Made by a program: the position numbers and the translations under genes
Source of the DNA: Nemertoderma westbladi
Lineage: Eukaryota; Animalia; Xenacoelomorpha
Assembly (NCBI GenBank): GCA_032718475.1
Contig: JAUCBJ010000865.1
Span: 1-64,000, forward strand
DNA length: 64,000 nucleotides
Direction: 5' to 3'
Notes under the pieces: model-generated
Databases searched by the model: none
Told to the model about the DNA's origin: nothing
What the model saw: only the letters and a program-made list of their open reading frames with translations
Part shown: one piece after another, positions 1,404 to 39,563 of the stretch
How positions within the stretch are numbered: the stretch's first letter is position 1
Layout: every line of letters starts with the position of its first letter

Positions 1404-1479
1404 GCCTCCGTGGTGTAGTGGTTAGCATTCATACCTGGACGTTTATCGGGAGACGCGGGTTCAATCCCCGCTGGTGGCG
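1404..1479 (+). ncRNA. tRNA-like sequence (tRNA-derived SINE head or tRNA pseudogene)
   Basis: A box TGGTGTAGTGG at 1411, B box GGTTCAATCC, imperfect acceptor stem GCCTCCG/TGGTGGC, downstream T-run. The anticodon arm is not canonical. Confidence 0.6.
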
Positions 1480-3070: not shown

Positions 3071-3942
3071 TTAAAGTAACAGCGGACCTATCGGCTAAGG
3101 TATACTAGAGTGAAACAGGAGGGAAGTACAAATACATAAATATGTAAATACATACATATAGTGCGGCCAGGTGATATTAATTAAATAATGCCGAACCGTG
3201 GGTGTTCAACCCACGGTGACGTGGTGCTTACTCAATTTTTCCATTCTGAACAAACCCAAAATATTACATCACATCATTAATTACATTTGCATTAACAGCT
3301 CAACTCCAATTTATTTCACTTACAGAATGATGTACCTATAAATTATATTGAACTCGAACAAAGTGGAGTTTTTTAAATAACAACAACTGTTTGGAGAAGA
3401 TCGATAACTATTATTCCAATTGCTCATTTAACCAATATTGCAGTTACACAAAGGGTTCGTAGCTGCAGGACTCAGTGATTCACTTGATTCACTAATGTAC
3501 ATCTCCAACTATTGTAGGTCTACATCTATAAAAGTATTGAAAGAAACTACCCAAGCCTGACATCTGTTGTAGAGGCTTACAAACAAAGAGTATTACTAAA
3601 GTCTAATGTTTCATAAAGGAAATCAATAATTATCTTCATAGAATTATGTTTAGTAACTCCCCCCCCCCCCCCCCTCAGTTATATTTGAGACATTTTTATA
3701 AACATTCGTTTAATTTTGTCTTTGACGCGGATGAGATCGTAGCAGTTTTACATAATATTTTTGTAATTTCATTAATAATATATTTTATTATTTATTATAA
3801 CATTGTAATTAAATGAATGACGTTTAGTTCAAAATTTTACCGGCGATATGTAAGGATACCAATTACCGATTTTACAATGTAAATAAGACAATATGACAAT
3901 GCTCTATAGCGAAAAATATCAACCGGCCCTATTGGGGCTCGT

Positions 3943-3986
3943 ACCCGGTACCTAGGTTTCAAACTTCTGGTTATCATCAGCTGGGT
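3943..3986 (-). ncRNA. Minimal type I hammerhead ribozyme (degenerate)
   Basis: Minus strand reads ACCCAG-CUGAUGA-UAAC cagaa GUUU-GAAA-CCUAGG-UA-CCGGGU. The core is intact, helix III is palindromic and helix II is weak. Confidence 0.6.
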
Positions 3987-4100
3987 GAGTGTACTGAGCT
4001 ACCTGGCCGGATGAATATTTCGCTATGGAGTGGGAGATCATATTTAGGCCAAATATACATATAACGAAATATTCATCCGATCTGGTAGCTCAGTACACTC

Positions 4101-4144
4101 ACCCGGCCGATGATAACCAAAAGTTTGAAACCTAGGTACCGGGT
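4101..4144 (+). ncRNA. Minimal type I hammerhead ribozyme (degenerate, CCGAUGA core variant)
   Basis: ACCCGG-CCGAUGA-UAAC caaaa GUUU-GAAA-CCUAGG-UA-CCGGGU, with a perfect 6-bp helix I. It lies between A box TGGTAGCTCAG and B box GGTTCGAGCC. Confidence 0.55.
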
Positions 4145-6168
4145 TCGAGCCTCAATAGGGCCGGTTGATATTTTTCGCTATGGAGAGCATTATCATATTG
4201 TTTTATTTACATTGTATATTTAATACACCGCGTCACTCACCCCACAACAATTCACTTATTATTATTAATTACCGATTTTGTTTTAACTTAAATTTTATCA
4301 TGTGATCACCCTCCAATAGTCCAAACATTCATAAACATATGAGTCCGGGCTAGGGAATTGACCCCCGCCCCCAAAGCAACTGCGCAAATTGAAGAACAAC
4401 AACGTTTACGATGTGTTTATTACACTATAATGGGATAAACAGTAAAAGCATAAGAAGGGGGAAATGGTAGATAAGAGAATTAATGTCTCGTCTCATGTTA
4501 AATTATTAATTCAAGGTAAGGAACAGATTACAGTGGCGCGTTAATCTAATTAAAACAAAAAAACTAAAGTCAATATAAGTTTACCGTTTATTTTTTGGAT
4601 TGGGAGTAATCTACTGTTATTTGCGTCGATTTTCCCCTGTACAGTAGAGGGAACCCTAGACCCCTGCACAGTACCGCTATGTACTGTAGAGGGAAGAATA
4701 TTGATTGCAGAGCGAATGTCCAATTGGGAATGAGCGAGTGGAAATTTCATCAGGGGAAAATACCTTTCTCTAATATAGTTAAAAACTCATACAAAATTCA
4801 TACATAAAACTTAATTGACTTACCATCTCAATCTATGAAAAATATCAAGATAAACAAAATGAAAAAAAAAACAGGAATATTTCCAAAACTAAAAATAGTT
4901 TATCATAGTATATTAGTGAACATAAATCTAAATAAAACGAAATCGTAAAATATCCATAACGATTGCGATTATGGCCATACAAATTTCGGATTAACGGTAC
5001 CTACAGTACACTATAATACAGTAACTATAGATCATTAAAATTAGCCTACATACATGCAGTGTACGGGTACCGTGGTGTTTTTTAAATAGTTTCATTCCAA
5101 AATTATTGGCCCCGCAACGATTAATCACGCAAATTATCAGCAGATGCTATAGTGATAGTCTGACTGTTTCAATATACAGTAGGTTAGGGTTCACTGTCCA
5201 GTTTTTAAGTGATTAATTAAAAGAAATAAAGTTTCATATTATTAAAACTTTTTAAAGTAAAACTATACGGCATCATTTCGTCCTACTGGACTAAAGAGTT
5301 TATACCTGTGGCTGACAAGGATGCAGGACAATTCGGTCCCGGACAATTCGGTCCGGACAATTCGGTCCCGCACAATTCGGTCCCGCACAATTCGGTCCCG
5401 CACAATTCGGTCCCGCACAATTCGGTCCCGCACAATTCGGTCCCGGACAATTCGGTCCCGCACAATTCGGTCCCGCACAATTCCGTCCCGGACAATTCGG
5501 TCCCGCACAATTCGGTCCCGCACAATTCGGTCCCGCACAATTCGGTCCCACTAATTTTGTGTTTTGGGACCGAATTTTCCGGGACCGAATCGTCCGGATA
5601 CTGACAAGGACAATTCGGTCCCAAAACATACATATTAATGGGACCGAATTCTCCGGGACCGAATTGTCCGGGACCGAATTGTCCGGGACCTAATTGTCCG
5701 GGGCCGAATTGTCCGGGACCAAATTGTCCAGGACCAAATTTAATTGATACTATATAATGGTGAATGTTTTAGAACCTTAATAGATATTATTATATGGTAG
5801 CTAGTGTTTTTTTTACTAGCTACTATTTTTTTGAAAATAAAAAAATTTTACTTTTTTTTGTTAACATTATTAGTTATGGTAGCTATGGTGTTTTTATGGA
5901 GCTTGTGAATTATTTACTAGCTAGTAATAGTATGTATTTAAAATTTTAAAACTGATTTTTTTTATATATTGCGTATGTATGTGTTGTTTGTTGGTTAACA
6001 AGCCTAAATTTTTATCCTAGATAATAGCTGGATCTCATTCAGGGACTGTTATAATACAGTATCATCAATATTTTTGATTATTGATAGTAAGAATGTGTTG
6101 GCAAGCTGTATTTTTCGAGGTGTTTGTTATCTCGGCTTCCGCCTCGAGGTCCCAGGTTCGAATCCGAC

Positions 6169-6211
6169 ACCACGCTGATGAGACCCAGTAAGGTCGAAAC
6201 GCGTACGTGGT
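6169..6211 (+). ncRNA. Minimal type I hammerhead ribozyme, copy 1
   Basis: ACCACG-CUGAUGA-GACC cagtaa GGUC-GAAA-CGCG-UA-CGUGGU: perfect helices I and II, palindromic ACGCGU helix III, predicted GUA cleavage after 6205. Confidence 0.85.
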
Positions 6212-6517
6212 TTGGAGAGATATGAGATATTAATTTCAAGAAAAATTACGCGATTCCTAAATTTGTACACTACCCGGTTAAAAAAGTACGCATGTGATGG
6301 GATTAGTCCTACAATTGCGCCAATAAAAGATAAGTTATTTTCGGTAAAATAAACTTATCATTCGAGGTTAAGACCCCTAGATCCCTTCCTATAATAAATG
6401 TATAATAACAAACACCTCGAAAAATACAGCTTGCCAACACATTCTTACTATCAATAATCAAAAATCAGGGGCTAATAAAATGGCAGCTGTCTTTGAAATT
6501 AATTCTCCATATCTCAA

Positions 6518-6585
6518 GAACCTGTGGCCTAGTGGTTGTAGTCTCGGCTTCCGCCTCGAGGTCCCAGGTTCGAATCCGACACCAC
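6518..6585 (+). ncRNA. tRNA-like Pol III promoter unit directly upstream of, and overlapping, the hammerhead (second copy 6938-7005)
   Basis: A box TGGCCTAGTGG, B box GGTTCGAATCC, TCC triplet in the anticodon-like loop; the acceptor stem does not pair. Confidence 0.65.
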
Positions 6586-6623
6586 GCTGATGAGACCCAG
6601 TAAGGTCGAAACGCGTACGTGGT
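6581..6623 (+). ncRNA. Minimal type I hammerhead ribozyme, copy 2
   Basis: Identical to 6169-6211. Confidence 0.85.
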
Positions 6624-7000
6624 TTGGAGAGATATGAGATATTAATTTCAAGAAAAATTACGCGATTCCTAAATTTGTACACTACCCGGTTAAAAAAAAA
6701 AAAAAGTACGCATGTGATGGGATTAGTCCTACAATTGCGCCAATAAAAGATAAGTTATTTTCGGTAAAATAAACTTATCATTCGAGGTTAAGACCCCTAG
6801 ATCCCTTCCTATAATAAATGTATAATAACAAACACCTCGAAAAATACAGCTTGCCAACACATTCTTACTATCAATAATCAAAAATCAGGGGCTAATAAAA
6901 TGGCAGCTGTCTTTGAAATTAATTCTCCATATCTCAAGAACCTGTGGCCTAGTGGTTGTAGTCTCGGCTTCCGCCTCGAGGTCCCAGGTTCGAATCCGAC

Positions 7001-7043
7001 ACCACGCTGATGAGACCCAGTAAGGTCGAAACGCGTACGTGGT
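7001..7043 (+). ncRNA. Minimal type I hammerhead ribozyme, copy 3
   Basis: Identical to 6169-6211. Confidence 0.85.
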
Positions 7044-9741
7044 TTGGAGAGATATGAGATATTAATTTCAAGAAAAATTACGCGATTCCTAAATTTGTAC
7101 ACTACCCGGTTAAAAAAGTACGCATGTGATGGGATTAGTCCTACAATTGCGCCAATAAAAGATAAGTTATTTTCGGTAAAATAAACTTATCATTCGAGGT
7201 TAAGACCCCTAGATCCCTTCCTATAATAAATCAATATTTTTGGTACTTAATATAATCTGCAACAGTTTAGGCCTAATTCTGAAATATCAATGTTTTCACA
7301 AGTTTTTTTATAATTTCAAGAAAATTCTAGCTAGTAAAAAAAAACTAGCTACCATAAAAAAATATCTCTACTAATATTCTAGAACATTCACCAATATTAA
7401 AAACGCACTCAAAAGTTGCTATCAGGAACCGGACAATTCGGTCCTACGACAATTAGCTCCCGGACAATTCGGTCCCATTTATTTAGTGTTTTGTGCGAAC
7501 CGAATTGTCCGGACCGAATTGTCAGGGACCGAATTGTCCGGGACCGAATTGTCCTTCATCCAGCTGACAAGCAGCCTGGCTTTGTTTCTGAGAATGCTGG
7601 TGATCCACGATAAAAGGCCAGATAGTGACGCACATTGATCGCAAGTGGGAAAAGTGATCATCATTGGTCATATTTAAAACATAGTTTTGTTTATTGTTTT
7701 GGTTAGCACACACCGACATTGTAAACTTACTCCTTTCCTTTAATGTTTTAAATTAAATTAAATTTGTAGGCAATAGTTGGTGTTTGCGGTACATTTAAGC
7801 TATTAACAATAAAAGGCAAGCTGATCCAACATACTGTAATATAATAATATAATATTATTATTATGCATGTATAGAATTGTAAGGTAAATATTATAATTAC
7901 CTAAACTGACAGTGTAAATTAGTTTTCAATAAACCATTAGAAATTTGGCAACCAACATAGCACAGACGTGGCTTATTGAAGATCTAAATCCCCCCCATAA
8001 GGTAAGTCCTACTGTAGTACATGGTGTACGTCAATGAAGTGAAAAAGTCCCTATTGTATTGTGGGTAAAGGATTGGTTTCATATAATCTTATCTGCCTAG
8101 CATACATAGTTGGTCCCTCGTGTAAGCAGATCCCGTCGGTACTGGATACCCTGCTAACGATTCTCTATGGTTTAATCTACCACTACTGGACCCTGTACCA
8201 CCTTGTCTGTGGCTCGCCTACACCCAGTTCTCGGTCAGGGGTCCTACTTTCGGGACAGAATCCCAGTCGAGGGTTTAACATGGATAACAGGGGAGTTCGG
8301 TGAAATATATGAATTTATTTTTACGAAATATAGTGGGTCCAATAAATATAGCATCTCAAGTACAGTACGTCGAGGATAGTGTAATAAATTAAAGAATAAC
8401 CAATAATATCAAGTCCACGTAAAGGGACATATGGTCGCCAAGAGAGGTAAGGTTTGATGTACCGGTACTGTTAAGTAAACACATGGAGATAATAATTGAA
8501 TGATAAACCACCAGTTATATAGTGATACAGTAGATCCAATATCTATGTTTATTGTTAATTTTCGCATATTGCTACGGAAACTAGCTAAAATTATAATCGT
8601 ATAATTTTAAAAAAATGTTCTATAATTGTTGTATTATACCATTTTTTCCTAAAATTATACTCTTTTCTTAGAAATTGCTCTGTTACGGGATTCTAGAAAT
8701 TATATGTTGCAGTATATTCATATAATTTTATGTATCTGTGTATTATCCTATGGTACACCAATATACTAAACTTGCTACGGTTTATTTCAATAATATACTA
8801 TAGCTAAATATTTCACATTAAGCAAAATGACCATCTCAATATGATTGACAGATTGGCACTTTAAATTCTACTCCAGTATTCGTAAGAATTATAACTCTTA
8901 TTACAAACTGACCTCACCAAAAGCCATGCGAGTATCATTAAATTAGATAGAAACGGCATAAAAATATCTTAAGATCTTTTCGTTGTTTGCCATCTTATAA
9001 ATTTCATTAAATTTTACGGGGGGGGGGGGGGGGGGGGGGGGGGTACTAGTGTAACAAGTGTCACTATTATTCTGCCTTTGTACTGTATAGCTGTTTTGGC
9101 TGTTGATTTATGTTCTGGAACATATTTCCGACTCGGTACATGTTTAATTTTTATGGTAGCTAGTGTTTTCAATGGTAGTTAGTGTATTCATAACAATGGT
9201 ACAGTAGCTAGTGTTTTTAAAAATACCAACATATCGTATTATTATTATGAATATCCATATTAAATTTGGTTTATCTTTATTTATTTATCAGAGAAAAGAG
9301 CCTAGTATTGAAGAAAATAAAATAACGTTATTTCTGCAACAATTTATTAAATAGATAATGAAAAAAATCTACAGTAGTTGCACAGATTCGGTCGTCCTTA
9401 CGACTCATTTCCAGTATAGACCCCACAGAACTATACTCCTTACAGGCAAAGAGATATCTGGTGCCGGTACTCATTTAACGACCATTTAATTAACAAAGCA
9501 AATATGCGAGCGCCCTGGTTTGGTTAGTCCCTTTAAAGCATTTGTGCCAAAACGAAAACTACCCTGGCCCGCCTGCAGGGGTAGAACCCCACGACCTCTG
9601 GAGCGATATTAATTCAAGGAAATGGGTTTAAATGCTACGCAGGGCTTGGAAAAATTGAATATGCGTGTTTGTATTAGAACACGATCCTTAAAAATACAAA
9701 GTAAGCTGTCATGTTGTTCGTTCAATATGCTCAAATTAACA

Positions 9742-9991
9742 ATAAACACAATATTGCAATGTTCTAGAGTTAATATACGGAAATAAAAACCTTCAGCGAA
9801 TAAAACTGTAATAATCACTTCTGCCTTATCCTTCAGCAAATTACCCTAATATAATAACCTCGGCCTGCGGCCTCGGTAATTATACAGGTTAATTTGCTTC
9901 TGGAACGGCATCAGTGATTATTCAGTTTTATTCGCTTCAGGTTATTATTTCCGTATATTAACTCTAGAACATTGCAATATTGTATGTTTAT
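9742..9991. repeat. Palindromic MITE-like element (about 110-bp imperfect arms around CCTCGGCCTGCGGCCTCGG)
   Basis: CAATATTGCAATGTTCTAGAGTTAATATACGGAAATAA is mirrored by TTATTTCCGTATATTAACTCTAGAACATTGCAATATTG. Confidence 0.7.
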
Positions 9992-13879: not shown

Positions 13880-16132
13880 CCGGTGTGACAGGCTAAAATG
13901 TCCCCCGCATATTTTGCCCGGGGGCAAAATCCGCTAGCAGATTTTGACCCCCTTACGACCAAATCTGCTAGCAGATATTGTCCTTCACGCAGATTATGTC
14001 CCCCCTTAAATCTAATCTAAACTACCTGACTGATGAATAACCTACCGACAAAAATACAGTAACTTATAAGGTTGACGATATTGGTGATCATCGCATAATC
14101 GCTTCCTTCTAGAATTGGCTATGAGAATACAGTATCAGTCCCGGACAATTCGGTCCCGGACAATTCGGTCCCGGACAATTCGGTCCGGACAATTCGGTCC
14201 GGACAATTCGGTCCCGGACAATTCGGTCCCGGACAATTCGGTCCGGACAATTCGGTCCGGACAATTCGGTCCCGGACAATTCGGTCCCGGACAATTCGGT
14301 CCCGGACAATTCGGTCCGGACAATTCGGTCCCGGACAATTCGGTCCCATTTATTTTGTGTTTTGGGACCGAATTGTCCGGATACTGACTAGGACAATTCG
14401 CGCCCAAAACATGCATATTAATGGGACCGAATTGTCCGGGACCGAATTGTCCGGGACCGAATTGACCGGGACCGAATTGTCCGGGACTAAAATTAATTGG
14501 TACTATATAATGGTGATTGTTCTAGAACCTTAATATATATTATTATATGTTAGCTAGTAGTATTTTTTCCTAGCTAGTATTTTTTTGAAAATAAAAAAAA
14601 TTTTACTTTTTTTTTGTTAACATTATTAGTTATGGTAGCTATGGTGTTTTTATGGAGCTTGTGAATTATTTACTAGCTAGTAATAGTACCGGTATGTATT
14701 TAAAATCTTTATAACTGATTTTTTTTTTATATATTGCGTATGTATACTGTATGTGTTGTTGGTTGGTTAACAAGCATAAATTATTATCCTAGATAATAGC
14801 TGGATCTCATTCAGGGACTGTTATAATATCATCAATATTTTTGATAATTAATATAATCAGCAACAGTTTAGGCCTAATTCTGAAATATCAATGTTTTCAC
14901 AAGTGTTTTTATAATTTCAAGGAAATGCTAGCTAGTAAAAAAAAACACTAGCTACACCTTAATAAATAATATATAATAATGTTCTCGAACACTTACCAAT
15001 AATAAAAATTAAAAAATACAGTATTTTTAAAACACTAGCTAAAACAAACACTAGCTACCATAAAAAATATCTCTAGGAATGTTCTAGAACATTCACCAAT
15101 ATCCAAAAAGCACTAAAAAGTTGCTATCAGGAACCGGACAATTCGGTCCCGGACAATTCGCTCCTAGGACAATTCGGTCCTAGGACAATTCGGTCCTAGG
15201 ACAATTCGGTCCCATTTAGTTAGTGTTTTGGGACCGAATCGTCCGGGACCGAATTGTCCGGGACCGAATTGACCGGACCGAATTGTCCGGGATCGAATTG
15301 TCCGGGACCGAATTGTCCGGGACCGAATTGTCCTACATCCAGTATTAATAACTACTGAATATAAAGAGAACCTATCATCGGTATATAACGCTGGCTGATT
15401 CAGTACGTTAAACTATATACTATAAATCTCAAGGGTATTTATATGTTAGGCTGATATACCGATATCGGTATATTGGTATATAAAAGTAACGGCGGACTTT
15501 TCTAAACCAAAACAATAAACGATATTTGTTACCAATTGAGGGCAAGGAACAGGTTACAGAAGCAGGGTTTTCTAACCAAAAGAATATACGATATTGTTAC
15601 CAATTGAGGGAAAGGAACAGGTTACAGAGGCAGGCTTTTCTAACCAAAGCAATAAACGATATATTTCTGTAGTACTGTATTGGTATTGTATAGTCTGATA
15701 TTATAATAGAGCCTACTGCTGTACTGTATTGTACCGTAATGTAATAAAATATCTCAATATCAAGCACTCAAGTATCGTGAAGACTGTCTAGAAGTCTACT
15801 CCATACTTTTACAGACTGACATATAAGTAAACTTACGTACAGTATGTTTGTTAATGTATGTCATGTTCATGTAGCAGAAGGCTGTTAGCAACCGGTAGTG
15901 ACCTACAGTAGTCTAATGCAGACGACTGACATCAAATCGAGTGAAAAAAAGGGATAAATGGGGGGCCGAATCTGCGAACACCGGACAATATCAGCTACTG
16001 TAATAGATACTAACCCCCTTAGGACAATATATGCTAGAGTATTTCGCCCTGGGGCTCATAATACGCTAGCGGATTTCATCTGGGGTGGGGCATACTGTAA
16101 TCATCAGGGGGCAAAATATGCTGTAACACTGG
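13880..16132. mobile_element. Degenerate DNA-transposon-like element hosting the second foldback copy
   Basis: Imperfect TIRs CCGGTGTGACAG / CTGTAACACTGG with subterminal GGGGGCAAAAT and GCTAGC repeats; no clear TSD. Confidence 0.5.
14138..15340. mobile_element. Second copy of the GGACAATTCGGTCCC foldback element (without the retrozyme insert)
   Basis: Same 14-15-bp arrays and internal sequence as 5319-7561; right terminus AATTGTCCTACATCC; left terminus truncated. Confidence 0.8.
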
Positions 16133-16957: not shown

Positions 16958-19900
16958 CTACCCCCCCCCCCCCCCTAGTGATAGACCCAAGGTATTTGAG
17001 TTCCCGTGTAGTACCTAGGTGGTTTCGAAACGCGCCCGGAACGAGTTGAAGTGTTGGACCGTACCTGTCGCTGTTCGTTTTGTTTGGGTACACATGGTGG
17101 GGTGTTAGGATTGGGGGTGGGGGTTGGAGGGTCGTCGGTGAAAGCTGGTTTCAGACGATCGACTGAAACGTTGGTGGTTCGGCCATTGACAGACAGGGAG
17201 AAATATTTTTCTGCCCGTTCTAGAACCTTGAAGGGGCCGTCGTACTGACACTGCAGGGGTCCCTTGTGCGCGTCGTGACGTATGAAAACGAAGTCTGTAT
17301 GCTGCAGATCCGTAGGGAGGTAAAACTGGTGGGATCCGTGGCAGGTGGTCGGAGTCGCGCAGAGTTGACGCATGGTCTGTCGAAGGCCGGTGATGAACTC
17401 ACTGGGGCTGGTGTGAGGGTCATCTGCTGGGCCACTGGAAGGAAAGAAGTCACCTGGTAGTCGGATGGTGGTCCTGTAGAGTAGCTCGGCCGCTGTGCAG
17501 GCGAGATCTTCTTTGGGAGTATTTTGTATTCCCAAAAGAACTAGAGGGAGTTCATCCACCCAGTTTGGGCTGTGAAGACGAGCTTTAAGGGATGCCTTAA
17601 GCTGCCGGTGGAAGCATTCCACTATGCCATTGGACTGGGGGTGGTAGGCGGTTGTGTGGTGGGACTGCGAACCGAGCAACTCGTTGAGAGAGGTCCACAG
17701 TTCGGATGTAAACTGGCTGCCTCTGTCTGACGTAATGTTGGAAGGGACTCCGTAATGGGCCACGCAATGTGAGAGTAGAGCGCGGGCGCATGAGGTGCTG
17801 GTGGCGTCGCCCATTGGGATGGCCGCAGGCCACCGGGTGAACCTGTCCACGATAGTGAACAAGTAAGTTGCGCCTTGGGAGGTTGGAAGGGGACCCACGA
17901 TGTCGATGTGGATCTTCTCGAATCGGCAATCTGGGAGGTCGAATTTCTCCAAGGGGGCCGATGTGTGTCATTGAGTTTTAGCTCATTGGTAGTCTACGCA
18001 CGCCTTTGCCCACTTCCCAACATCGCGATGTAAGCCGTGCCAAATAAATCGTTTGGCGATGAGTCGACGTGACGACCGGATGGAAGGATGGGACAGGCCG
18101 TGTATTGAGTCAAAGACTCTGCGTCGCCACTGTTCCGGAAAAATCTGTCGTGGGTTGGTAGTCGAAACATCACAGAGAACGGTGAACGCACCATTTCCAA
18201 AAGGGATGTCTTGGACGATGAGGTTGGTTATAGCGGTGCGGTATGACTGAACTCCAGGATCAAGGTGTTGGTCTTGGGACAGTGCGGCGTAGTCTATGTA
18301 TGGGTATGAGAGTGTCATGTTGAGTTCAGGTTGGTTTGCTGTTTCTACTCGGGAGAGGGCGTCGGCGACGAAGTTTGACTTCCCGTCGATGTGCCGGACG
18401 TTGGTGGTGAATTCCGACACGAAAGCGAGATGGCGCTGTTGCTGTGGCGACCACCGCTCGGAGACGCTACAAAACACAAAGATTGAGGGGTTTGTGATCT
18501 GTGTAAATATGAAAGTTACGTCCCTCGAGAAAGTATTGGAAGTGCCTAATCCCCAGATACAGTGCAAGGAGTTCGCAGTCGAAAGCGCTGTATCGGGTTT
18601 CGGCGGGACGCAACTTCTGGGAGAAGAAAGAAACGGGTTTCCAGGAGCCATTGAGAAACTGTTCCAGGACACCACTGACCGCCTTGTCGGAGGCATCAAT
18701 GGTGAGGTTAGTGGCAGCGGTGTGGCTCGGGTGGACGAGGAGAGTGACAGAAGCCAATGCGGACTTGGCGTTATCGAACGCTTTCTCCATGGCGGGGTCC
18801 ACATGAGGGACCTTGTAGTGGAAATGAGTGCGTTGTGGAGTGGGTGAAGCAACTCAGCGGCATGTGGGATAAACCTATGATAGAAGTTTATCATGCCAAG
18901 GAATTGTTGGAGGCCTTTCTTATCGGAAGGGTGGGGAAAACTAGAGATGACCTCAACCTTCTCTGGAATGGGTTCGGCGCCGGCGATGGATATTCCGTGG
19001 CCCAGGAAAGTGAGTGTAGGGACACCGAATACGCACTTCATCAGGTTGATGATGAGTCCGTGTGAAGCGAGGCGATCGAACAGCAGCCGGAGGTGTTCGA
19101 GGTGTTCTTCGGGGTTCGAACCAGTATGTCGTCCAGATATACGAACGCAAACTGAAGGCCCCGACAGACATCATCCATGAGTCTCTGGAAGGACTGAGCG
19201 GCGTTGCGTGTTCCAAAAGGCATTCGAACAAATTCGAATAACCCGAACGGGGTAATTTCCGTGGTCTTCGGGATGTCCTCTTTGGCAACCGGGATTTGGT
19301 TGTATCCCTGGACAAGGTCAATCTTTGAAAAAATTGTGGTGCCCGCGAGTTGGGAGGAGAAATCCTGCAGATGTGGGATAGGGTACCTGTCGGGGGGTTG
19401 TCGCGTCGTTAAGCCGGCGGTTGTCGCCGCATGGGCACCAACTGCCGCTTGGTTTTGTGGCGAGATGGAGTGGGGAAGCCCAGGTGCTGGACAAGCGACG
19501 GATTATCCCCATTTGTTCCATCTGCTCAAATTCGTGCTGCACAATTGCGAGTTTATCTGGTGATAGATGGCGAGGTCGGGCGTAGACCGGCGGTCCTTTC
19601 GTGGGTATATGGTGCTCGATGCCGTGTTTAGTTGTTGGTTGGGAGAAACACGGCTTGGTGAGAGCAGGATACTCGGAAAGGAGTTGCCTGTATGTGTTGT
19701 TGGATTGGTCTACGGTGTGGAGACCGGGGGTAGTCGTATCAGCAAGACGTGCCGGAATACTGGCAAAGGTTTCCGCATCAATGAGTCGTTGGCCGTGGAT
19801 GGCGATGAGCAGACCGTTCTCGCTAAAGAAATCCGCGCCGAGAATTGGTTGTGAGACGTCGGCGAGGGTGAACTTCCAGTTCATCCGGCCGAGGTTTATG

Positions 19901-20765
19901 TTCAGGGGAATATCTCGAGTTCCGTAAGTACGTATTGTGCTGCCATTCGTGGCAACCAGTGGGTCAGTCGGTGGGGCTGAGGGGGAATGCCTATCTCAGG
20001 AGGAAGCGGGAAAAACCACTGACTTTGGCCCCGGAGTCAACGAGGAACCGTAGGCCGGCGTTCCGGTCCCAGACGTAGAGGAGGCGACTGGTGCCGCTCA
20101 GACCAGCATAACTCGTCGCAGCCAGTGGCTGGTCGGGGCGTTTCCCGAGAACGTACACGGTCCCCAGCAGTTCTTCGCTTTGGCGCCGTACTTAGCGTGG
20201 TACCAACATAAAGTAGAGTCACTGTCTGGTGTTGGCCAACCTCGGTGGCGGTTTATCACGGCGAGGTGGGCGGCTAACTCCGAACGTCGGGGTTTGCTGA
20301 GCTCTCGCTTCCATGACGGCGTCGGCAGCCTCTGCGATTTCACATGCGTCAGTGAGTTTAAGTGCTGACACCGTTACTCGGACGTCGTCGGGTAGCTGTT
20401 GATGGAACAGCTGGAGGAACAGGTCATCGACGGGGTTGTTGCCGTGCAAATCTAGCATGTGGTCGAGTAGTTCCGTTGGCCTTTGATCTCCGAGGCCTGG
20501 GAGATTCAGCAGTTTGGCAGCCTTTTGGTTGGGCGTCAGGCTGTATGAGCGGAGGAGCGCGGCTTTCAGAAATTCGTATTTACCTGTTGTAGGTGGGTTA
20601 GAGATGGTTGCACCATCCGACTTGCCACATTCTGGTCGAGTGCAGCAACTACGTAATAGTACTGCGTTTCATCTACCGTGGTGCTGCGTGTGGTGAACTG
20701 AGCCTCTGCCTGGAGGAACCACACGTTGGGTTCCAGAAGCCAGAAACTCGGAAGTTTCAATGTGA
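16692..20765 (-). mobile_element. Degenerate Ty3/gypsy LTR retrotransposon (gag-PR-RT-RNaseH-IN), multiple frameshifts, 5' LTR missing
   Basis: gag KLPSFW..W..QAEAQF; PR PILGADF; RT MPFG.RNA and YLDD; RNase H TIDAS and TDHKPL; IN HIDIVGPLP, VDRFTRW, SDRGSQF, HPQSNG and GPF. Confidence 0.92.
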
Positions 20766-21386
20766 CCGTAAAATAGACTTTAATAACTTAATTGGCACGT
20801 AACACTTTTTAAATTTTAATGTTGTTCAAATTTAAACGTATTTCTGTCATTCAAGTATCGTTTAAAAGCTATTTTTTGCTCTTTAACAGATATAAATTTG
20901 CAAAATTGTAGCACATATTTAATTATACCAAACATGAGAATGTAAATCCCAAAATACATAAAAACTAGTCTTGTCAATAAAATTTGTGTTGTTTTGGAAG
21001 AGGTGGCGTCATAATAATATATCGAAAATGAAGAATTCAAATCAAGTGTATGCAAATATATTACATACCTATGTGATTCTCATATAATTTACAGTTCAGT
21101 AAAACTACTTGCAGTACATTTGCATAGATTTTATCGCGACAGGAAACCCAAGTATGAAGAGTAAGGAAATTCTATGTGTCGAAAAACCTCTGTAACCTCT
21201 TCTTTGCATAAAAAATTACATCCTGAAATTTCAGAATTATAGGCCTACTTCATATGTAATTCTGCTATAACAAAATTTGATGTTGTATTCGGCAGAACCA
21301 TCCAAAATATCATATCTATAAACGATATGAAATTGGGATAAAGTTTATTACAACTACACGAAATATAGAGACAGGCTGTTCCTTGG

Positions 21387-22646
21387 TCGTGGTCCCTGGT
21401 CGTGGGACCATGGATCCCATTTTGGCACTTAGAAGGATAATTGAAGAGTTATCAAAAAAGAAAGACAGGCATCTGGCTGTTATCTTTGTTGACTTCTTCA
21501 AGGCCTTTGATTCAGTCTCTCGCTCACGTGTGTTCAGCATACTTTCATTATATGGGATTCCTGATGAAATTATTGCAGCAATCAGATCAGTATATGATGG
21601 TTCGACAACATTTGTGTCTACTGTTGACGGTGACACAGAACCATTTGAAGTGTTATGGGGCGTCCTCCAGGGAGACACACTTGCACCATTCTTGTTCATA
21701 ATTGTTGTTGACTATGTTCTACGCATGTCCTTAGATCATCATAATGATGATGGGGTGATGATAACTCCACCTACTGGCTCCAGAAGTCGAGGAAATCCTG
21801 CCAAGTACCTAACTGATCTAGACTTTGCTGATGACTTAAGAGTACTCTCAGAATCACTAGAGGGAGCCCAACGGCTCCTCAGCTCATTAGAACATGCTGC
21901 TTCTAGTGTTGGTCTTTTTATTAACTCCAGAAAGACCAAAATGTTGACAGTTAACTTTGAAAGTCCTCAGCAAGTCTCTGACTGGAAGAGCATAAGCTCA
22001 AAGGATGGTATGCTTGAGCGTGTGGACGACTTCTGTTATCTGGGATCATGGATCCGGAAGTCAGGTGAGGACCTTCGAATACGTAAGGGAAAGGCATGGA
22101 CAGCCTTGAATAGGCTTTCCAGGATTTGGGAGTCACCGAGAATTAATCGAAAACTTAAGGTCCGATTATTTATAGCAGCAGTAGTTCCAGTACTCCTCTA
22201 TGGGAGTCCATGCTGGGCTCCAACTGCTGAGGACACCAAATCTCTGGATGGCACATTCACAAGAATGATACGCCGGGTTCATTGTGTCAAGTACAATGCA
22301 CACATCTCCAACCAGACACTATATAACATTGGAGGTGTCTCATTGGTTCCCCAAGCTTGACACTAGAACAAAATCGCCTCCGCTTTGCAGGACATTGCTT
22401 TCGCCGTGAGGACCAGCCAGTGCATAATCTTGTACTTTGGCAGGCTCATGGAGTGAATAAGCATGATGGACAGCCCATGACTTTCTTGAGACGCATCTTA
22501 AAGGACACTGGCCTTGGAGATGCAGATGATCTAGCAAATGTCATGGGTGATAGGTAGTTGTGGCGGTGCAATTTTGTCTATAAGCCGGCACAGCATTCTT
22601 AAAAATGCAGCTGCAATGCAGCATGCCGATCCTAGTAGTAGTAGTA
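21387..22646 (+). mobile_element. 5'-truncated RTE-type LINE insertion (RT ORF 21383-22360 plus frameshifted end)
   Basis: FVDFFKAFDS, GVLQGDTLAP and DFADD motifs; (TAG)n tail; 9-bp TSD GTTCCTTGG at 21378-21386 and 22647-22655. Confidence 0.9.
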
Positions 22647-27305: not shown

Positions 27306-29611
27306 CTACTTGCGCTTCTGCCGTTTTTCCTTGGGAGGTTCAACTGGCCCACTAGCCGGACTGTATGCTGGACTGGAAGGGGAGTAGGATGGACTGCTGG
27401 GACTGTACTGGGGCGAACTGGGACTGTACTGCGGCGAGGTAGGACTGTATTGTGGGGAGCTGGGACTGTATGAAGCATCCCCCTGGGGGCTGGTGGGGCT
27501 GTAGGTCTGATGGCTGTCCCCAGCGGGGCTGTAGGGCCCTTGGGGGCTCGTCGGGCTGTACTTTGGACTGCTGGGAGTGTAGGAAGCAGCCTGGGGCGAA
27601 TAATCTTGGGGCGACGCCCCGTAACGGGGCGAGGTAGGGCTGTACGAGGGACTGGCCGGGGACTGATACGACGGGCTGGTGGGACTGTAGCGCGGGCTGG
27701 AGGGCGAGTAGCCCGGACTGGCAGACTGTGGGGCGTACTGAGGGCTAGAGGGCGAATACTGCGGACTCGAGGGCGAATACTTAGGAGAGCTGGGTGCGTA
27801 GCTGGGCGAGTTGGGCGAGTAACTGGGCGAAGTGGGCGTATACCTGGGAGAAGATGGGCTGTATCTGGGGCTAGTGGGACTGTACTTGGGACTGGATGGG
27901 CTGTACTTTGGACTGGAGGGACTGTATTTGGGACTGGACGGGCTATATTGCGGAGAGGATGGAGTGTATTTGGGGCTGCCGGTAGGAGAGTAGGAGGGGC
28001 TGGTGGGCGAGTAGGTTGGGCTAGTTGGGGTGTAACTGGGCGATGTGGGCGAATAACCTGGGCTGCTGGGCGAGTACTTGGGCGACACGGAGGCGCTGTA
28101 TTGCGGCGAGGTGGGCGAGTACTTGGGACTGGTTGGACTGTAACTCGGGGAAGTGGGCGAGTAGTTGGGCGACGTTGGGCCGTAGGAGGGGGAGGTGGGG
28201 GAGTAACGGGGGGAGGTAGGGGAGTATCCGCTGGGACTGGCCGGGGAGTAACTGGGGCTGGTTGGGGAATAGTTGGGGGAGGTGGGACTGTAACTGGGGC
28301 TAGTGGGACTGTATGAAGGACTGGTGGGACTGTAGCTTGGACTGGTAGGACTGTAGGATGGACTGGTAGGACTGTATGAAGGACTCGTGGGACTGTAGTT
28401 TGGACTAGCTGGCCCGTATGAGGGACTGGTAGGAGTGTATGATGGGCTGGATGGTGAATAGCTGGGGCTGGTTGGCGAGTAGTGTCTGTGGCCTCCGTCG
28501 TATTTGGGGGAAGTTGGACTGTAACTGGGCGAACTGGGGCTGTACTTGGGGGAGGTTGGCGAGTACTGTGGACTGCTTGGCGAGTAGGCGGGTGAGCTGG
28601 GGCTGTAGTTGGGTGAGTCGGGGCTGGCGGGGGCCACGAAGGATGGCGACGCGGGGCTGTACCCGCTGGGACTGAGCCCCGAGCTCGGGCTCGGCATGTA
28701 GCCGCTGCGAGCGGGACTGTCGCTGCCGCCCGGGGACATCCGGGGACTGTACCCCGGGGACAACCCGATCTCGGAGTGGCCGGCGGGACTGAACCCCGCG
28801 GTTCCGGGCGTCATCCCGGACGAGGAGGGCGACAGCCCCGAGTACATGGGCGTCGCCTGGGCGAGAGGCGTCATCTGGGGCGACAGACCGGCCTGGAGCC
28901 CGTACTGGAACGGGTACATCCCGGTGCCCTGCTCCCCGGCCAGATTCACCGGAATCTCCATTCCGTACTTACACTTCTCACCGTCCAACATAAGGTCGAA
29001 GGCCCCCGTCCCGCCGCGGGACAGCTGTCCCAACATGATGTTCTCCGAGACTCCCTTCACGAAGTCCACCTCCGAATGCGCCGATGCCTCCAAAAGAATG
29101 TCCACTGTCTCCTCGAACGAGGCTCGCATCATGGCGCCGACCTCCTGTCGGTTGATCCCGTGACGCGTGATCGCCATCAGGTGACCCCGACACGTCATCA
29201 CGTCGCATAGTAACGCAAGATGCCGGTAGTTGACGTAGGACCCGTCGAAAGAGATCACGTGATACATCTCGCGTTCCACGGCCTTACGGACTGCCTCGAT
29301 ACCGAGAACGGAGAGGATCTCGCAGATATCATTCGAGGTGGTTCGATGGCTGTCCACATCGGGTTCGCTGAGCACTTTAAGCAGAGCGACACCATCCGTC
29401 TCCAGTATCCACTCTTGGATACCTTTGAAATCGCCCTCATCTGTGATTATGAACCGCTTCTTGTCCTCTTCCTTAGGGAGATGCATGTAGACCTTGGCGA
29501 TGGAGTCGATACCTTGGAGGGTCATATCGGTTAGAATATTTGTCTCAATCATCCGTAGAAACATTTGGTCTTCCATCTTATCTACGTGTTCCTCATCGTC
29601 TTGGTCTTTAC
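27306..29611 (-). CDS. POLR2A: RNA polymerase II largest subunit, coding exon 3 (includes the CTD)
   Basis: Acceptor tatatttAG|GT AAA GAC (phase 1); [20 protein letters not shown] and YSPTSPS heptads; stop at 27306. Confidence 0.97.
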
Positions 29612-30433
29612 CTAAATATAAAACAAGTTTATAAATCTTTATTCTACAACCTCAAATACATTTCTAAATCTTACATAACTATCGCATACATATCCTATTT
29701 AGCCGCAACTAAGCTATAAACATATCCCAATCACTAAATAGTTAAAAAAAATAATCATTTTACTCAATTTTAACAGGAAACTAAAATATTCAGTTTACTC
29801 TAAAATATTATCACTGAAATTTATTAATTATCACTAAAGGGAGTTAAAATTGAGTTTAGTAATAAGTAATATTCGGTATTCTGGTGGATAAATATTTTAG
29901 TGACCAAATAACTATTTTGCTACCCCTAAAAAAATGTAACAACCAATTTATATAAGTTTGTGTTTAAAGTTACACATTTCAGTGGGCTGATCCGAGTGGT
30001 TTGCTACACGAACGAACGTAGTGAGTGAGAATCAAGTAACGAGCGTCAGCAGAACAATGTAAAGTACTTTGCAACAAGTATAAATGGACAGTCAAACTGT
30101 AGGTGGGCAGAGAGCCGATTATAATAATATGATAACTGTAGCCAATGTGTGAAGTAAAGGCCCATTATAATGTATGTAAAATAATAGACAACGGAAACGT
30201 AATAACAAGTTTCAGTTTCATATTAAAGAGTTCCTCTAAAGATATAAAGTCTCGTTACTCTACAGACTGTGCAGCTGTAATCTGATATGTTATTGTTCCA
30301 TAAGGTTATAATAATTGGCAATATAACAACACGCCGTTAATAACGGCGTTAAGTAATGTTACAATTTAGGGAGATAAAGTACTTTACAACACGTACGTCA
30401 TGTATTTTTACCCGAAATTTCTAACATCCTTAC

Positions 30434-32807
30434 CGCTATCGCTGTTCATAATCCGAATTCGCAGAACGAGTTTCTCCGCATTGTCGTCATTGAAGATGCA
30501 GTTGAGATCGTTACCGAAACCGCTGTTAATCTTCTCCGCGATCTGCTCCATGGTGAGTTTTTTATCCGTCATCTTCTTGCGATCCAGTTCGATGCGGAGC
30601 AGCCAGGGCGAGATCCTGGTGGGATCGAAGTCCGGCATCTCGTAGTAAACGTTAACGAAGTCCTGATCCTCGGCGATGCAGGTGTTCTGTGGATCCGGGT
30701 CGTAGTATATCGCCGTGTTGGCCGTTACTTTCCGCAGGGTCGTGTGCTCCAACCTACACAGAACGTCTTTGCACTTCTCAGCATCCCTCGAGGCCGACCC
30801 AGTCAGGAACACCGTCAACGACGGCGTCTTAGGATTTTTACTAACGTTGATAATTTCCTTGAGTCGCGGCACCCCGAGGGTCACGTTCTTAGCGGAGACG
30901 CCGGCGAAATGGAAAGTGTTGAGGGTCATCTGTGTGGCGGGTTCCCCCAGACTCTGGGCGGCCAGAGCGCCGCACATCTCCCCGGGTTGCGACATCGCCT
31001 GGTTGAATCGCGCCTCAACCTCCCCCAACAGCCATTCGAACGAAGCCGCGTTCAGATGGTGCTCGAACGCGACGCGGTTCGAACACAAACTCGATCGCAA
31101 CAAACAGTTGAATAAAAGCGTGGCGTTCTGTTGAGCCTCGACGCTCAACCGATCCTCCCCTTTGACTACGACCAGCCGTTTACTGAGATCCCGCACACCT
31201 TCGATCACCTTGAGGGGGTGAAGATCGCTGGGCTGCCTCGGATTCAAATGGAAGATCTTCTGGGCGTTCCAGATGAGTCGGTTCATGTTGCACGGGAGAA
31301 CCACCTTACTGTCACCCTTAGGGGAGATCATTCGGAGATCAACGCGATCTTTCGTCAACTGCTGATACTCCAGATCAATCTGTTGTTGGAGTTGTGCCGA
31401 CGTACTGATCTCCCGGACAATCTCCTCGGCGAGAACCTTACGGAGCATTCGGTCGTTGTTGACGTCAAACTTAAACTTCTTCTCGAACACTTTGTTATTT
31501 GGTTTAATAGAAGCGATGTTCTGGAATTCTACGAATTCCCCGGCCAATCCGTCCTCGCCGTATAGGAACTGTACGAGCGCGTTGTTACTGTTCCTAACCG
31601 TCCCATCATACTCGACCATGACCCCCTCCATCGCCTTTATCAACCGCCTCTGGATGTAACCCGTCTCCGACGTCTTTACCGCGGTATCGATGAGCCCCTC
31701 ACGGCCTCCCATCGCGTGGAAGAAGAACTCGGTCGGGGTGAGCCCCGCCATGTAGGAGTTCTCGACGAAACCCCGAGACTCCGGCCCGTAATCGTCCTTA
31801 AGGAAGTGCGGGAGACTCCGATGACGGAACCCGAAGGGAATACGTTTACCCTCGACGTTCTGCTGCCCGCAACAGGCGATCACCTGCGATATATTAATCT
31901 TGGAACCCTTGGAACCGGCTACCACCATCGCTTTAAAGTTATTGTAACCGGAAAGCGACTTCTGCGCAGCCCCGCCAGTTTTATCACGAGCGTCGTTTAG
32001 GATCCGGTTGACTTTATTCTCGAAGGTCTGCCGCAGCGTGTTGCCAGGCGACGGCTCTAAGTCGTCGTTATGCGCCATCTCGATTACCTCTATGACGTCG
32101 TGTTTGGCCTTCCGGATGGTCTCTTTAATCTCGTTGTAGGTCTCGGTGTCGGCGATACAATCACCGATCCCGATGGTGTGGCCCTGGATGAGGAACCAGT
32201 TGTTCACCAACTTCTGGACGTTACCGTAGAAGTACTTGGCGATCTCGTGACCTTTCTCCAGGAAGATCACGTGATTCAACGACCCAGCCGATGGGCCCAG
32301 CGACTTCTTACAGAGAATCCCGGTGATCAGCTCCCCGTCCTCTATTAGCACCTTGGTGTCCCCCGGGGAGATGTGTTTGAAGGGGCCTCGGTCTTCCTCG
32401 TCGGGGTGGGTTGAGTGCGTGCGGACGCAGTTCACGCCCGGAGGGATGAGCACGGATAGAAGTTGCTTACCGGTCCACAAAGGTTGGGGTTTCAGTATCG
32501 CTGGCTGCGGAATCCTTCCGTCCCAGTCCCCAACCCACATAAGTAGGTTCATCACGTGTCCCTTCTCTATGAACACGTCGCGTTTCGTCATCATACGGAC
32601 AGCCGCCAATGTGTCCTGCACGATCCCCATTACGGGACGGTTCGACTGCGGGGTTATCAACATTCTCGGGGTCATCATCATCTCCTGTATCTCGGCGCGT
32701 GTCTCGACGGACTGGGGGACGTGGAGGTTCATCTCGTCGCCGTCGAAGTCGGCGTTGTACGGCGTCGTGACGCTGAGATTCATACGGAAAGTCGACCACG
32801 GAAGGAC
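30434..32807 (-). CDS. POLR2A: RNA polymerase II largest subunit, coding exon 2
   Basis: Acceptor (C)nAG|GTC restores [11 protein letters not shown]; catalytic NADFDGD; bridge helix [13 protein letters not shown]; trigger loop TQMTLNTFH; donor AGCG|GTAAG. Length 2374 nt keeps the frame. Confidence 0.97.
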
Positions 32808-34224
32808 CTGGGGGGGGGGGGGGGGAGATATTAACTGGCAATGTAAGAGATAAACTATGTGGTACTAGACATGGGGTTATTACAGATAAAAGTTGTAAAG
32901 TAAAACAACATTAAACGGTTGCAACTAAATAAGGTCACATTTAAATTTAATGTTTTAAACGTCAATTTTAAGGTATCGATAAACTTTGTTGCATTTCTTC
33001 CTTGGTTCTGCCATACTGCCATACGTTCTTCATACGTTAAACATATGCGAATTAGATGAGATCTTCTAGTCCTGTTGTCTTTTGAACTTTTGTCTTGACA
33101 TAATGAATGATTTTTAATTTACTTTATTATTATTTACCTCGGGATCCCGAGACTTTATTTTTAATTATTGACGACAAAAATCAACTTCAACAAGATTAAT
33201 GTCCCGGTGCTCTATCAATGGGTGAGCATATAACTACTGGTTTTATCAACAACTGTTATATATTGAGGTCACTTTCCTTTGACACTATAAGCACGGACGT
33301 ATACTAGAGTACTTTAATACGTGATGACTGCTGACAGCAAACAACTTACCATTTGGCAGCAAGATTTGTTAATTATAAATTAATTAGGCAACATTAATAT
33401 GCATGTAATCATATTTATAGATTAATTAACTTCACCAGTGGATCATATTTTAACGTACATTGTGGTTTTATATTTTACTTTAACAAGGTGTTAAGGCAAT
33501 CTCGTGTTATTGTATATAATTACCGGTCTGGCCGTAATATTATTTAATAAATATGAAAAATGTTCACAAAGATTAAGCCACTTGTTATAAATATGAAAAC
33601 ACTTTATTTACCACAAAATCTTCGACAAAAATAAATTAAAACTTTCCGCTAAATTTAAATACTTTAAATTACTAATCTAAAATACTTTACGTTCTCTTTC
33701 AGCAAACTACATTAGAAATCAACTCACCCGAGACGGTTCGAACGGTGCTGGATATAATAATTTTCTCAAAAAGTAATAATAATAATAGATTCATCTATTC
33801 AATCTCTGAGAATGCCACCATAAATATGTGGAAATATTTTAATGTAAGCGCTTGCGAATATACAATTTTAATAATAATAATAATATTAACAGTTATTTAT
33901 AAAGCGTATTTTGCTGATCTAATGAGATTCAATGCCGCTAGACAGATAAAGACGCAAAAGATATCCACATCCCACATAATATTTTACACAATAAATTATT
34001 TGCGAACCCTATCGAATAAGCTAATGTATTTAATTGACGTTTTATTGAATCCAAATTTTAGCAAAGTCCTTGGGAGGGTGGGGGAGGGGGGAGAGGGGCG
34101 GGGGGTATCCGGGTATATCATTCATACTTCATACATACATGAAAAAACATAAAACAATATTATACTGTACAAAATAAATTTAATTAAAGATCATATAAAC
34201 TAGCTTTACAACGCTGCAACTCAC

Positions 34225-39061: not shown

Positions 39062-39563
39062 TTTATTAAAATAAACAGATAAAAAAACATCCAACTGTTA
39101 AATATCAGAATCAGATTAGAAATAGGACAGTAGGACTTAAACCGTGATAAGAACGACTGAACGATGAACTGGAGCTCTGACAATTCGCCCCCTTGCGGCA
39201 GACATTGGACATGGGAACTATCTGACTATATAAGTCCTGAAGTCTGTCTGTGTGTAGAATTTCTATACCTGTGACCTGTGATACACTACACTACATGTGT
39301 ACTAAAATTGGCAACAAACAAACAACAGAACAAACAAACTAATAACATAATAATACAGTAGCTGGAGGAACCCGAGCAGTGCTCCAATGATAAAATTTAA
39401 ATTTTATTTCTTTTTAATCTCGAATTAGAATTGCATGTTTTTACTTATATAGGCCTACTGTATATTTATCTTAGCTAACTGTAGTTGTCTTTCGGGATAT
39501 TTGCAATTTTTACGTTATTATTGTATTTCATAATCCGAATACAGGAATAATAGGGCAGTATAC

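Follow-up and report, generated by a model that had tools for sequence, protein, structure and literature searches.

The window analysed here, a 64,000-nt stretch of DNA from Nemertoderma westbladi, contains a head-to-tail array of hammerhead-bearing units whose sequence conforms to that of the sequence-defined non-LTR retrozyme class. This retrozyme copy was probably made from a circular monomer RNA and inserted in trans by a Penelope-like reverse transcriptase/endonuclease. The coordinates of all features are given in Table 1.

The hammerhead spacing of 412 and 420 nt given in the initial annotation was borne out by the lengths of the first two units, which differ solely by an A6 versus an A14 run, and the third, incomplete unit matches them fully over 270 nt. 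The unit has a GC content of 39% and is non-coding, with a longest ORF of 36 codons. A self-comparison of the element found no terminal direct repeats other than the tandem unit. The 5' truncation of the direct array falls between the A and B boxes, and its 3' end lies in the proximal end zone of the family, with the last 2 nt common to the right TSD. Several of the features by which non-LTR retrozymes are defined, namely tandem units of ~150–450 bp with a complete type I hammerhead in at least two consecutive ones, a non-coding sequence with a GC content below 50%, a TSD of more than 4 bp and a mobile, multi-copy family, are found here.

Table 1. Features of the retrozyme insertion, in coordinates of the window.
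Feature	Position	Strand	Remarks
Host element, foldback-type repeat with 15-nt tandem subterminal repeats	5320..7561	.	array inserted mid-element
TSD, left copy, 13 bp ATCAATATTTTTG	6064..6076	+	last 7 nt match unit 6459-6465, other strand
Inverted tail	6077..6130	-	reverse complement of unit 6405-6458
Direct head-to-tail array, 2.7 units	6130..7231	+	units 6130-6541, 6542-6961, 6962-7231
B box, copy 1	6155..6165	+	A box lost by truncation
Hammerhead 1	6169..6211	+	type I; predicted cut after 6205
Long-stem arm extending helix I	6217..6238	+	predicted fold; pairs with 6494-6515
Sole T4 run per unit	6338..6341	+	also 6758-6761, 7170-7173; possible leaky Pol III terminator
A+C-rich tail, 59 nt, 68% A+C	6400..6458	+	between two preferred 3' end zones; second copy 6820-6878
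Partner arm of long stem	6494..6515	+	predicted fold
tRNA-type promoter elements, copy 2	6525..6577	+	A box 6525-6535, B box 6567-6577
Hammerhead 2	6581..6623	+	predicted cut after 6617
tRNA-type promoter elements, copy 3	6945..6997	+	A box 6945-6955, B box 6987-6997
Hammerhead 3	7001..7043	+	predicted cut after 7037
TSD, right copy, 13 bp ATCAATATTTTTG	7230..7242	+

The insertion interrupts a host element that has an uninterrupted sister copy at ~14135-15343, in which the TSD sequence is present once, near 14831-14843. In the DNA runs, further copies of the host element likewise lack the insertion, with joints 6056>7230 and 6049>7233 across its site. The 13-bp TSD and the empty sister site reported earlier are thus both confirmed, and insertion of the array as one unit is supported. 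The 5' inverted segment described with them is present as well, since positions 6070-6130 are a 100% reverse complement of unit 6405-6465 with 7 nt common to the TSD; its nature, however, is that of the distal 3' tail of the element. The 7-nt match between TSD and unit represents microhomology at the distal priming site, and the inverted tail begins at the preferred distal 3' end of the family. It meets the direct array through an imperfect overlap (8/11) at 6120-6130. The inversion is not interpreted as a 66-nt deletion, because from the tail side a gap of only 5 nt suffices and the family ends are matched.

Family members were found in 1,494 contigs of X1 and 2,009 contigs of X2, two DNA runs, with most at least 95% alike. 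Both runs bear one species label, so their insertions are not independent. The family is abundant, young and non-coding, and resides in an invertebrate animal. For a xylosyltransferase, the best of 7,990 scored candidates are vertebrate and echinoderm proteins of ~40% identity, as expected of an animal with no near relative among those listed. The 3' ends of its copies cluster in two zones approximately 60 nt apart, 6801-6823 and 6878-6885. Ends at 6878 occur in 19 of 355 partly aligned contigs in X1 and in 19 of 365 in X2 (p<1e-15 for 19 ends at one place under a uniform null), and the sequences that flank them are AT-rich and unrelated. At least 24 ends in X1 and at least 20 in X2, among those listed, fall at 6801-6823; the end mapping lists 18 of 494 loose-end rows. 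The window copy uses both zones, with the direct array stopping at the 6819 equivalent and the inverted piece starting at the 6878 equivalent. Five other single contigs also carry an inverted tail, of 21–43 nt, joined to a 5'-truncated direct copy (6097>6448, 6101>6384, 6109>6370, 6119>6375 and 6113>6335).

The two end zones and the inverted tail match the Penelope 'tail' signature. The copies show two adjacent 3' ends bounding a tail (longer here than the printed 30–40 bp), together with a partial tandem with an inverted 5' piece, as in the window copy and the five joints, and AT-rich flanks at the target. The cited portion of PMC11167929 describes two adjacent internal reverse transcription start sites bounding a tail in an AC-rich region, and AT-rich targets; excerpts of PMC3846280 and PMC8557442 describe an inverted copy, a tail and a TSD of 8–10 bp. 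Priming in this system appears to involve 7-nt and 2-nt microhomology, unlike the non-homologous priming in vitro described in the same portion of PMC11167929. No partner Penelope ORF or GIY-YIG domain was found in the 11 window ORFs scanned. Mobilisation by Penelope, as first proposed, is probable, and is backed much more strongly by the family-wide end mapping.

All window units and the inverted piece carry four family-rare alleles (6444, 6490, 6504 and 6553), which have no counterpart in 97–100% of the family depth in X1 and X2. These common alleles point to a single monomer as the template of all window units. Later tandem duplication could also account for them, because two of the four (6490 and 6504) would be in a single-copy part of a 1.7-mer. 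None of the listed runs is recorded as RNA. In run X5 (labelled organism B; RNA by guess), one 441-nt contig with a depth of 13.8 contains the 411-nt unit and repeats 30 nt of it at its two ends, as a closed loop would; it carries the five majority alleles. It was not counted as evidence for a circle, since tandem DNA loops alike, and missing host-flank cover in X5 was rejected as a control because DNA ratios predict a depth of just 0.8–1.2 there. Searches with the B-box-plus-core pattern gave four loci in metagenomes and none in viral contigs. Inspection of the four showed neither a hammerhead fold nor a palindrome, and two of them are bacterial-type tRNA genes followed by chance words.

The three hammerheads have identical CTGATGA cores, which lie at 6175, 6587 and 7007; helix I begins at 6169, 6581 and 7001. 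In hammerhead 1, helix I contains 6 bp, helix II contains 4 bp with a 6-nt loop, and helix III is the palindrome ACGCGT. Their description as three identical ribozymes holds; the term 'minimal' does not, because these dimensions fit the 'canonical' type I of PMC4209133, which in the portion cited has a 6-bp helix I, a 4-bp helix II and a helix III of 1–2 bp with a palindromic loop. A structural descriptor produced three matches in the window versus none in 200 dinucleotide shuffles, on both strands. In the Infernal/Rfam check suggested by the initial annotation, the best match of the hammerhead clan was Hammerhead_HH9, whose 26.6 bits fall short of the gathering score of 52; E is 0.022 when the whole window is scanned and 7e-05 when a 201-nt stretch is. 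Weaker, overlapping matches of the clan may include RF00163. Helices I and II are predicted with p=0.76–1.0, and helix III with p=0 as a monomer; a palindromic duplex is possible. Cleavage only as a dimer, as had been supposed, is not established for type I hammerheads, as most invertebrate retrozymes cleave efficiently according to PMC7229834. The covariation check found no compensatory helix changes among the listed family variants, in a family too uniform to reveal any. Ribozyme changes are listed only in decayed copies (X3 record 19 and X4 record 21) and break pairs or core bases. None of 13 common variant sites is inside the ribozyme and boxes, which occupy 65 of 412 nt (p=0.11), and core and boxes are intact in the family majority.

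The coordinates confirm that A and B boxes precede hammerheads 2 and 3 and that a B box alone precedes hammerhead 1. The A..B box pattern has two matches in the window versus none in 200 shuffles, and just 3 nt separate the B box from helix I, placing the boxes directly 5' of the hammerhead as in Sm-alpha. The A/B-box element is likely a tRNA-type promoter. The unit has a tRNA-related head with A and B boxes, as tRNA-derived SINEs do. The head is not a tRNA, with no Rfam tRNA match at E<=10, no ARAGORN call and no cloverleaf. The T4 run, which is present in the family majority, is located between ribozyme and tail in each unit, and a full monomer therefore needs Pol III read-through. At most one T4 run was obtained in 2,615 of 5,000 shuffles; this depletion is not significant and lends no statistical support to Pol III. 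Predicted cleavage would give a 412-nt monomer (6206-6617) with the A box at nt 320 and hence the promoter at the 3' end, so that a linear copy of it could not drive its own transcription; the cited portion of PMC6765202 reports the same for Sm-alpha. The earlier claim of monomers carrying their own internal promoter is correct as to the boxes being in the unit, and needs correcting in that the promoter would be 3'-terminal after cleavage.

The circular fold predicted for the unit has z=-4.3, and none of 100 shuffles is equally stable; 2 of 25 control tiles match the unit in stability. Substitution of the majority alleles shifts this fold by just -1.3 kcal/mol. The tRNA-like head (6516-6574) is predicted to loop out from the partner strand of the long stem, and the tail is not predicted to form a stem-loop. 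In the proposed cycle, Pol III would quite probably start near 6515 in a tandem copy, pass the ribozyme and occasionally read through T4 into the next unit. Two hammerheads would then likely cut after GUA to give a monomer with its ends held by the predicted stem of ~30 bp, which a host ligase may well close into a circle. Very probably, as judged from the footprint, the two strands of an AT-rich target are nicked 13 bp apart by a Penelope-type protein, which starts cDNA synthesis from two internal positions ~60 nt from each other. The cDNA on one strand would comprise the tail alone, from 6458 back to ~6405, the other would start at 6399 and run for 2.7 laps, and the two would meet head to head through the short imperfect overlap. 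In the observed product, the TSD copies enclose the inverted tail followed by the tandem array, and a promoter once more precedes two ribozymes and a tail.

The same Penelope-type insertion could have used an uncleaved linear multimer RNA, from Pol III or Pol II read-through of a uniform array, with a slow or dispensable ribozyme and no circle. The insertion covers three intact cleavage sites, the direct array begins just 17 nt past the A-box start, near the expected Pol III start, and the inversion joint of one further contig (6730/6962) coincides with this start of the array. The cited portion of PMC11167929 has unprocessed RNA as the main substrate, with no RNA ends at the cut site, and an Anolis element whose ribozyme is dispensable for insertion in vitro. 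Among the 18 of 494 loose-end rows listed, no cluster is seen at 7037/7038, which equally fits a circle. A Pol III transcript would nevertheless have to pass three T4 runs, and a source array of units sharing the rare alleles still requires a monomer-to-multimer step, and this route appears unlikely. Twin priming, known from L1 work, would explain the inversion if the element were an ordinary tRNA-headed SINE retroposed by a LINE; the 13-bp TSD, the 7-nt primer microhomology and the 5-nt gap (6400-6404) at the inversion would suit it, and LINE-type reverse transcriptase fragments are present in the window. This origin is very unlikely, given that a head-to-tail unit has two recurrent zones of internal 3' ends and that the 3' end shows neither poly(A) nor a simple repeat; nor is a LINE-shared 3' end seen, as BLAST of the array against the window gave no match in the LINE fragments, whose 3' ends may be missing.

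Even less probable is a satellite-like repeat amplified mostly at the DNA level, with boxes and hammerhead as relics and an array grown by local duplication after insertion. Such a repeat could account for the covariation not seen in the listed variants, and only one of nine predicted Xenopus elements was cleaved in vitro according to the available text of bioRxiv 10.64898/2026.07.22.740005. It is at odds with the TSD and empty sites, the dispersal of copies among unrelated flanks, their preferred ends, and the intact core and boxes of the family majority.

The likeness to Schistosoma (blood fluke) Sm-alpha noted initially is supported by the promoter-then-hammerhead layout. In the passages cited, Sm-alpha has a tRNA-derived, apparently Pol III promoter with a type I hammerhead directly after it, tandem copies at high copy number and a promoter at the 3' end of the cleaved unit. 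Those accounts describe no mobilising enzyme, Penelope tail, fixed ends or inverted piece. The unit also resembles metazoan non-LTR retrozymes as described in excerpts of PMC7229834 and the same preprint, with tandem 150–450-bp units each with a type I hammerhead, a GC content below 50%, a TSD of more than 4 bp, no ORF, a self-paired predicted circle and Penelope as the proposed partner. In these excerpts, PMC7229834 does not mention Pol III or SINE and the preprint does not contain 'tRNA'; both argue for Penelope from co-occurrence and pLTR homology, rather than from insertion ends as here. Circles have been demonstrated for the other invertebrate retrozymes in PMC7229834, whereas the circle is predicted here. 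In common with Penelope/Poseidon elements and their pseudo-LTR, as described in the portions cited, the unit has a hammerhead and a downstream AC-rich tail between two start sites, partial tandems, an inverted 5' piece overlapping the direct copy, an AT-rich target and a variable TSD. It differs in the absence of an ORF, a tail of ~59 nt versus 30–40, a TSD of 13 bp versus 8–10 bp in rotifer examples, and tRNA-type boxes in place of TATA/Inr-like motifs. The TRIMp3 elements Cassandra, Helenus and Ajax are likewise non-autonomous, with an acquired small-RNA Pol III promoter and a non-LINE partner, in the available text of PMC10886601; they are LTR elements, whereas here no LTRs are found and a hammerhead is present.

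Since the promoter and hammerhead layout is already known from Sm-alpha, it holds limited surprise. What this copy adds is the insertion-footprint evidence for Penelope mobilisation, which earlier work, in the portions cited, proposes or infers by co-occurrence or homology. The excerpts of PMC7229834 and the preprint name no promoter for animal retrozymes and propose Penelope elements as the source of the inserting enzyme. Here, 412 nt hold a candidate promoter, a ribozyme and a mapped pair of priming sites, with a known insertion target site, and thus the questions of circle versus linear template and of Penelope versus LINE become directly testable. Tentatively, the element may be to Penelope what SINEs are to LINEs. 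It would be a Pol III retrozyme that drives its own transcription, carries its tRNA-derived promoter as a side hairpin in the extended helix I of the ribozyme, makes its own circular RNA through a single leaky T4 and serves a Penelope enzyme as the template for rolling laps of cDNA from two fixed starts. In that case, Sm-alpha would represent the earliest discovered member of a broader class, and the unit a minimal parts list (promoter, ribozyme and tail) for an in vitro cycle.

By the sequence criteria of PMC7229834 and bioRxiv 10.64898/2026.07.22.740005, the array is a non-LTR retrozyme. The outline given in the initial annotation was largely right, with corrections, and the feature is real. 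The window is part of a repeat-rich animal genome, in which the closest relatives of one host gene reach only about 40% identity. The insertion consists, in order, of a target site duplication (TSD), an inverted piece, the direct array and the second TSD copy. Units 1 and 2 differ solely in an A run (6 versus 14), and the partial unit 3 is identical. The proposal that the array was inserted as one block is borne out by the 13-bp TSD, the empty site in the sister copy of the host foldback element, which is uninterrupted and holds the TSD sequence once, and contigs in the DNA runs that bridge the insertion site in other copies of this element. The foldback repeat, which has high copy in the DNA runs, has short inverted repeats at its termini and, in subterminal position, tandem repeats of 15 nt. 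The coordinates of these and other features are summarized in the table.

Features of the retrozyme insertion and of the surrounding window
Feature	Position	Strand	Remarks
LINE-type RT fragment	7–621	−	related to 21281–22360; weak DUF6451
tRNA-like sequence	1404–1479	+	followed by T6
MITE-like inverted-repeat element	3902–4185		arms 125 nt
Host foldback repeat, interrupted	5320–7561		9-bp direct repeat on either side (5311–5319, 7563–7571)
Insertion	6064–7242		
13-bp TSD	6064–6076 and 7230–7242		single copy in sister host foldback element
Direct array	6130–7231		2.7 units
3' end zone	6801–6823		at least 24 contigs in X1 (355 partly aligned), at least 20 in X2 (365 partly aligned)
3' end zone	6878–6885		at least 19 contigs in X1 (355 partly aligned), at least 23 in X2 (365 partly aligned)
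MITE-like inverted-repeat element	9748–9983		arms 61 nt
Host foldback repeat, sister copy	about 14135–15343		uninterrupted
LTR-type retrotransposon	16975–20668	−	fragmented, RT and integrase pieces; read as Gypsy-like by domain order
LINE-type RT fragment	21281–22360	+	related to 7–621; weak DUF6451, RVT_1
RNA polymerase II largest-subunit gene	27306–35637	−	three long frames; named from translation, heptad repeats visible
Xylosyltransferase	36725–39097	−	apparently intronless
BEL/Pao-type retrotransposon	46870–56905	+	two long frames
Open frame	57541–61287	+	1,248 codons, several CCHC-like motifs, directly 3' of the BEL/Pao element; no Pfam match at E≤0.01

In each unit, helix I of the hammerhead spans 6 bp and helix II, closed by a 6-nt loop, spans 4 bp; the place of a stable helix III is taken by the palindrome ACGCGT. 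Searching with a structural descriptor gave three hammerheads in the window, as initially annotated, versus none in 200 shuffles. The label "minimal" does not hold, since PMC4209133 keeps that term for motifs without helix III and calls this geometry "canonical". The best Rfam match, Hammerhead_HH9 (26.6 bits), is below the gathering score of 52; internal loop 1 of that model is shortened in the window sequence. In the predicted fold, helices I and II form with p=0.76–1.0 and helix III with p=0 in the monomer, but the palindrome could pair between two copies. Most invertebrate retrozymes cleave efficiently, and amphibian ones depend on dimers (PMC7229834). Decayed unit copies with changes that break the ribozyme were found in two further runs (X4 record 21 and X3 record 19); the X4 copy has a depth of 401 and so seems amplified within another repeat.

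The head carries motifs that match the consensus of an A box and a B box; the second starts 42 nt after the start of the first and ends 3 nt ahead of helix I. This arrangement was found at two places in the window and in none of 200 shuffles, in agreement with the tRNA-type boxes first noted ahead of the hammerhead. An actual tRNA is ruled out, as neither Rfam nor ARAGORN called one in the head and the predicted fold is a single long hairpin. In the predicted fold of the whole monomer, helix I is lengthened by about 25 pairs (6212–6216/6575–6579, then 6217–6238/6494–6515), with the head looped out where the opposite strand continues unbroken. The circular fold of the unit has z=−4.3, with 0/100 shuffles as stable, but two of 25 control tiles (drawn from 74 eligible) fold as well. 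T runs in the unit are not depleted versus shuffles; thus, it is the boxes alone that point to Pol III use. Each unit contains one T4, 133 nt downstream of the predicted cut and upstream of the tail; in human cells, T4 acts as a minimal and incomplete terminator (PMC5725217). The separate tRNA-like sequence at 1404–1479 scores above the Rfam gathering score (34.2 bits), with no anticodon assigned by ARAGORN, and is probably a pseudogene or SINE head; BLAST found no match between it and the retrozyme head.

One unit matched 1,494 and 2,009 contigs in X1 and X2, respectively, two DNA sequencing runs under the same species label, most of them at least 95% alike; read depth in these runs does not give a copy number. 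Among the 18 loose-end rows listed of 494, all X1 and X2 3' ends fall within two zones, and the few 5' ends are scattered. The flanks beyond both zones are AT-rich and mutually unlike. The window copy uses both zones, with the direct array ending at the 6819 equivalent and the inverted piece starting at the 6878 equivalent. The 59 nt between the zones, the tail, are 68% A+C versus 54% across the unit. Of all 59-nt windows, the six richest in A+C begin 4–9 nt inside this tail. An inverted tail (21–43 nt) joined to a truncated direct copy was seen in 4 of the 15 joints listed of 100, and in one further joint, each as a single contig per run. A 441-nt record of the unit with the family's majority alleles is present in X5, a run whose label names another organism, and may represent contamination, a mixed sample or a shared element.

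These ends resemble the products of a Penelope mechanism. In work with a purified protein of the Penelope type, AT-rich DNA was nicked on both strands and reverse transcription began at a pair of neighbouring internal sites, located 3' of the hammerhead in an AC-rich region; the sequence between these two sites is the genomic tail (PMC11167929). Penelope insertions have been described in which copies stand in partial tandem, the direct copy is overlapped by an inverted one on its 5' side, one end bears a tail, and the TSDs measure 8–10 bp (PMC3846280, PMC8557442). The window insertion can be read as the product of priming at two points of a single RNA that lie 59 nt apart; its joint between inverted piece and direct array has a 5-nt gap and an 8/11 overlap. 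Unlike described Penelope insertions, the window family has a longer tail with no predicted stem-loop, and the window copy has 7-nt and 2-nt microhomologies at its putative primers. A GIY-YIG domain, the sign of a partner Penelope, was found in none of the 11 ORFs scanned in the window.

Four positions set the window copy apart: at each, every unit in the window has a base absent from 97–100% of family depth in X1 and X2 (66–100% in the thinner run X4), and so does the inverted piece wherever it spans the position. Because these rare bases are shared, one diverged monomer multiplied after mutating. Rolling reverse transcription on a circular RNA would give uniform units in one step, and would require only one T4 read-through. 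Alternatively, the template may have been a linear RNA read from an array whose units were already uniform, and later local duplication may account for two of the four positions. In vitro, insertion did not need the Anolis ribozyme (PMC11167929). Of the runs found to contain the stretch, none is catalogued as RNA. On the boldest view, which we offer tentatively and consider somewhat doubtful, the element is a Penelope-driven, circle-based counterpart of SINEs.

The tandem promoter-then-hammerhead layout is common to the unit and Schistosoma Sm-alpha (PMC6765202, PMC2770079). A search of the literature, with most subscription papers and Repbase outside its scope, found no single element in which a hammerhead and a tRNA-type head occur together with Penelope tail footprints. 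The main value comes from mapping the ends: this connects a Pol III-type retrozyme with the Penelope mechanism and opens the cycle to testing. Elsewhere in the window, the RNA polymerase II largest-subunit gene and the xylosyltransferase form an intron-poor pair.
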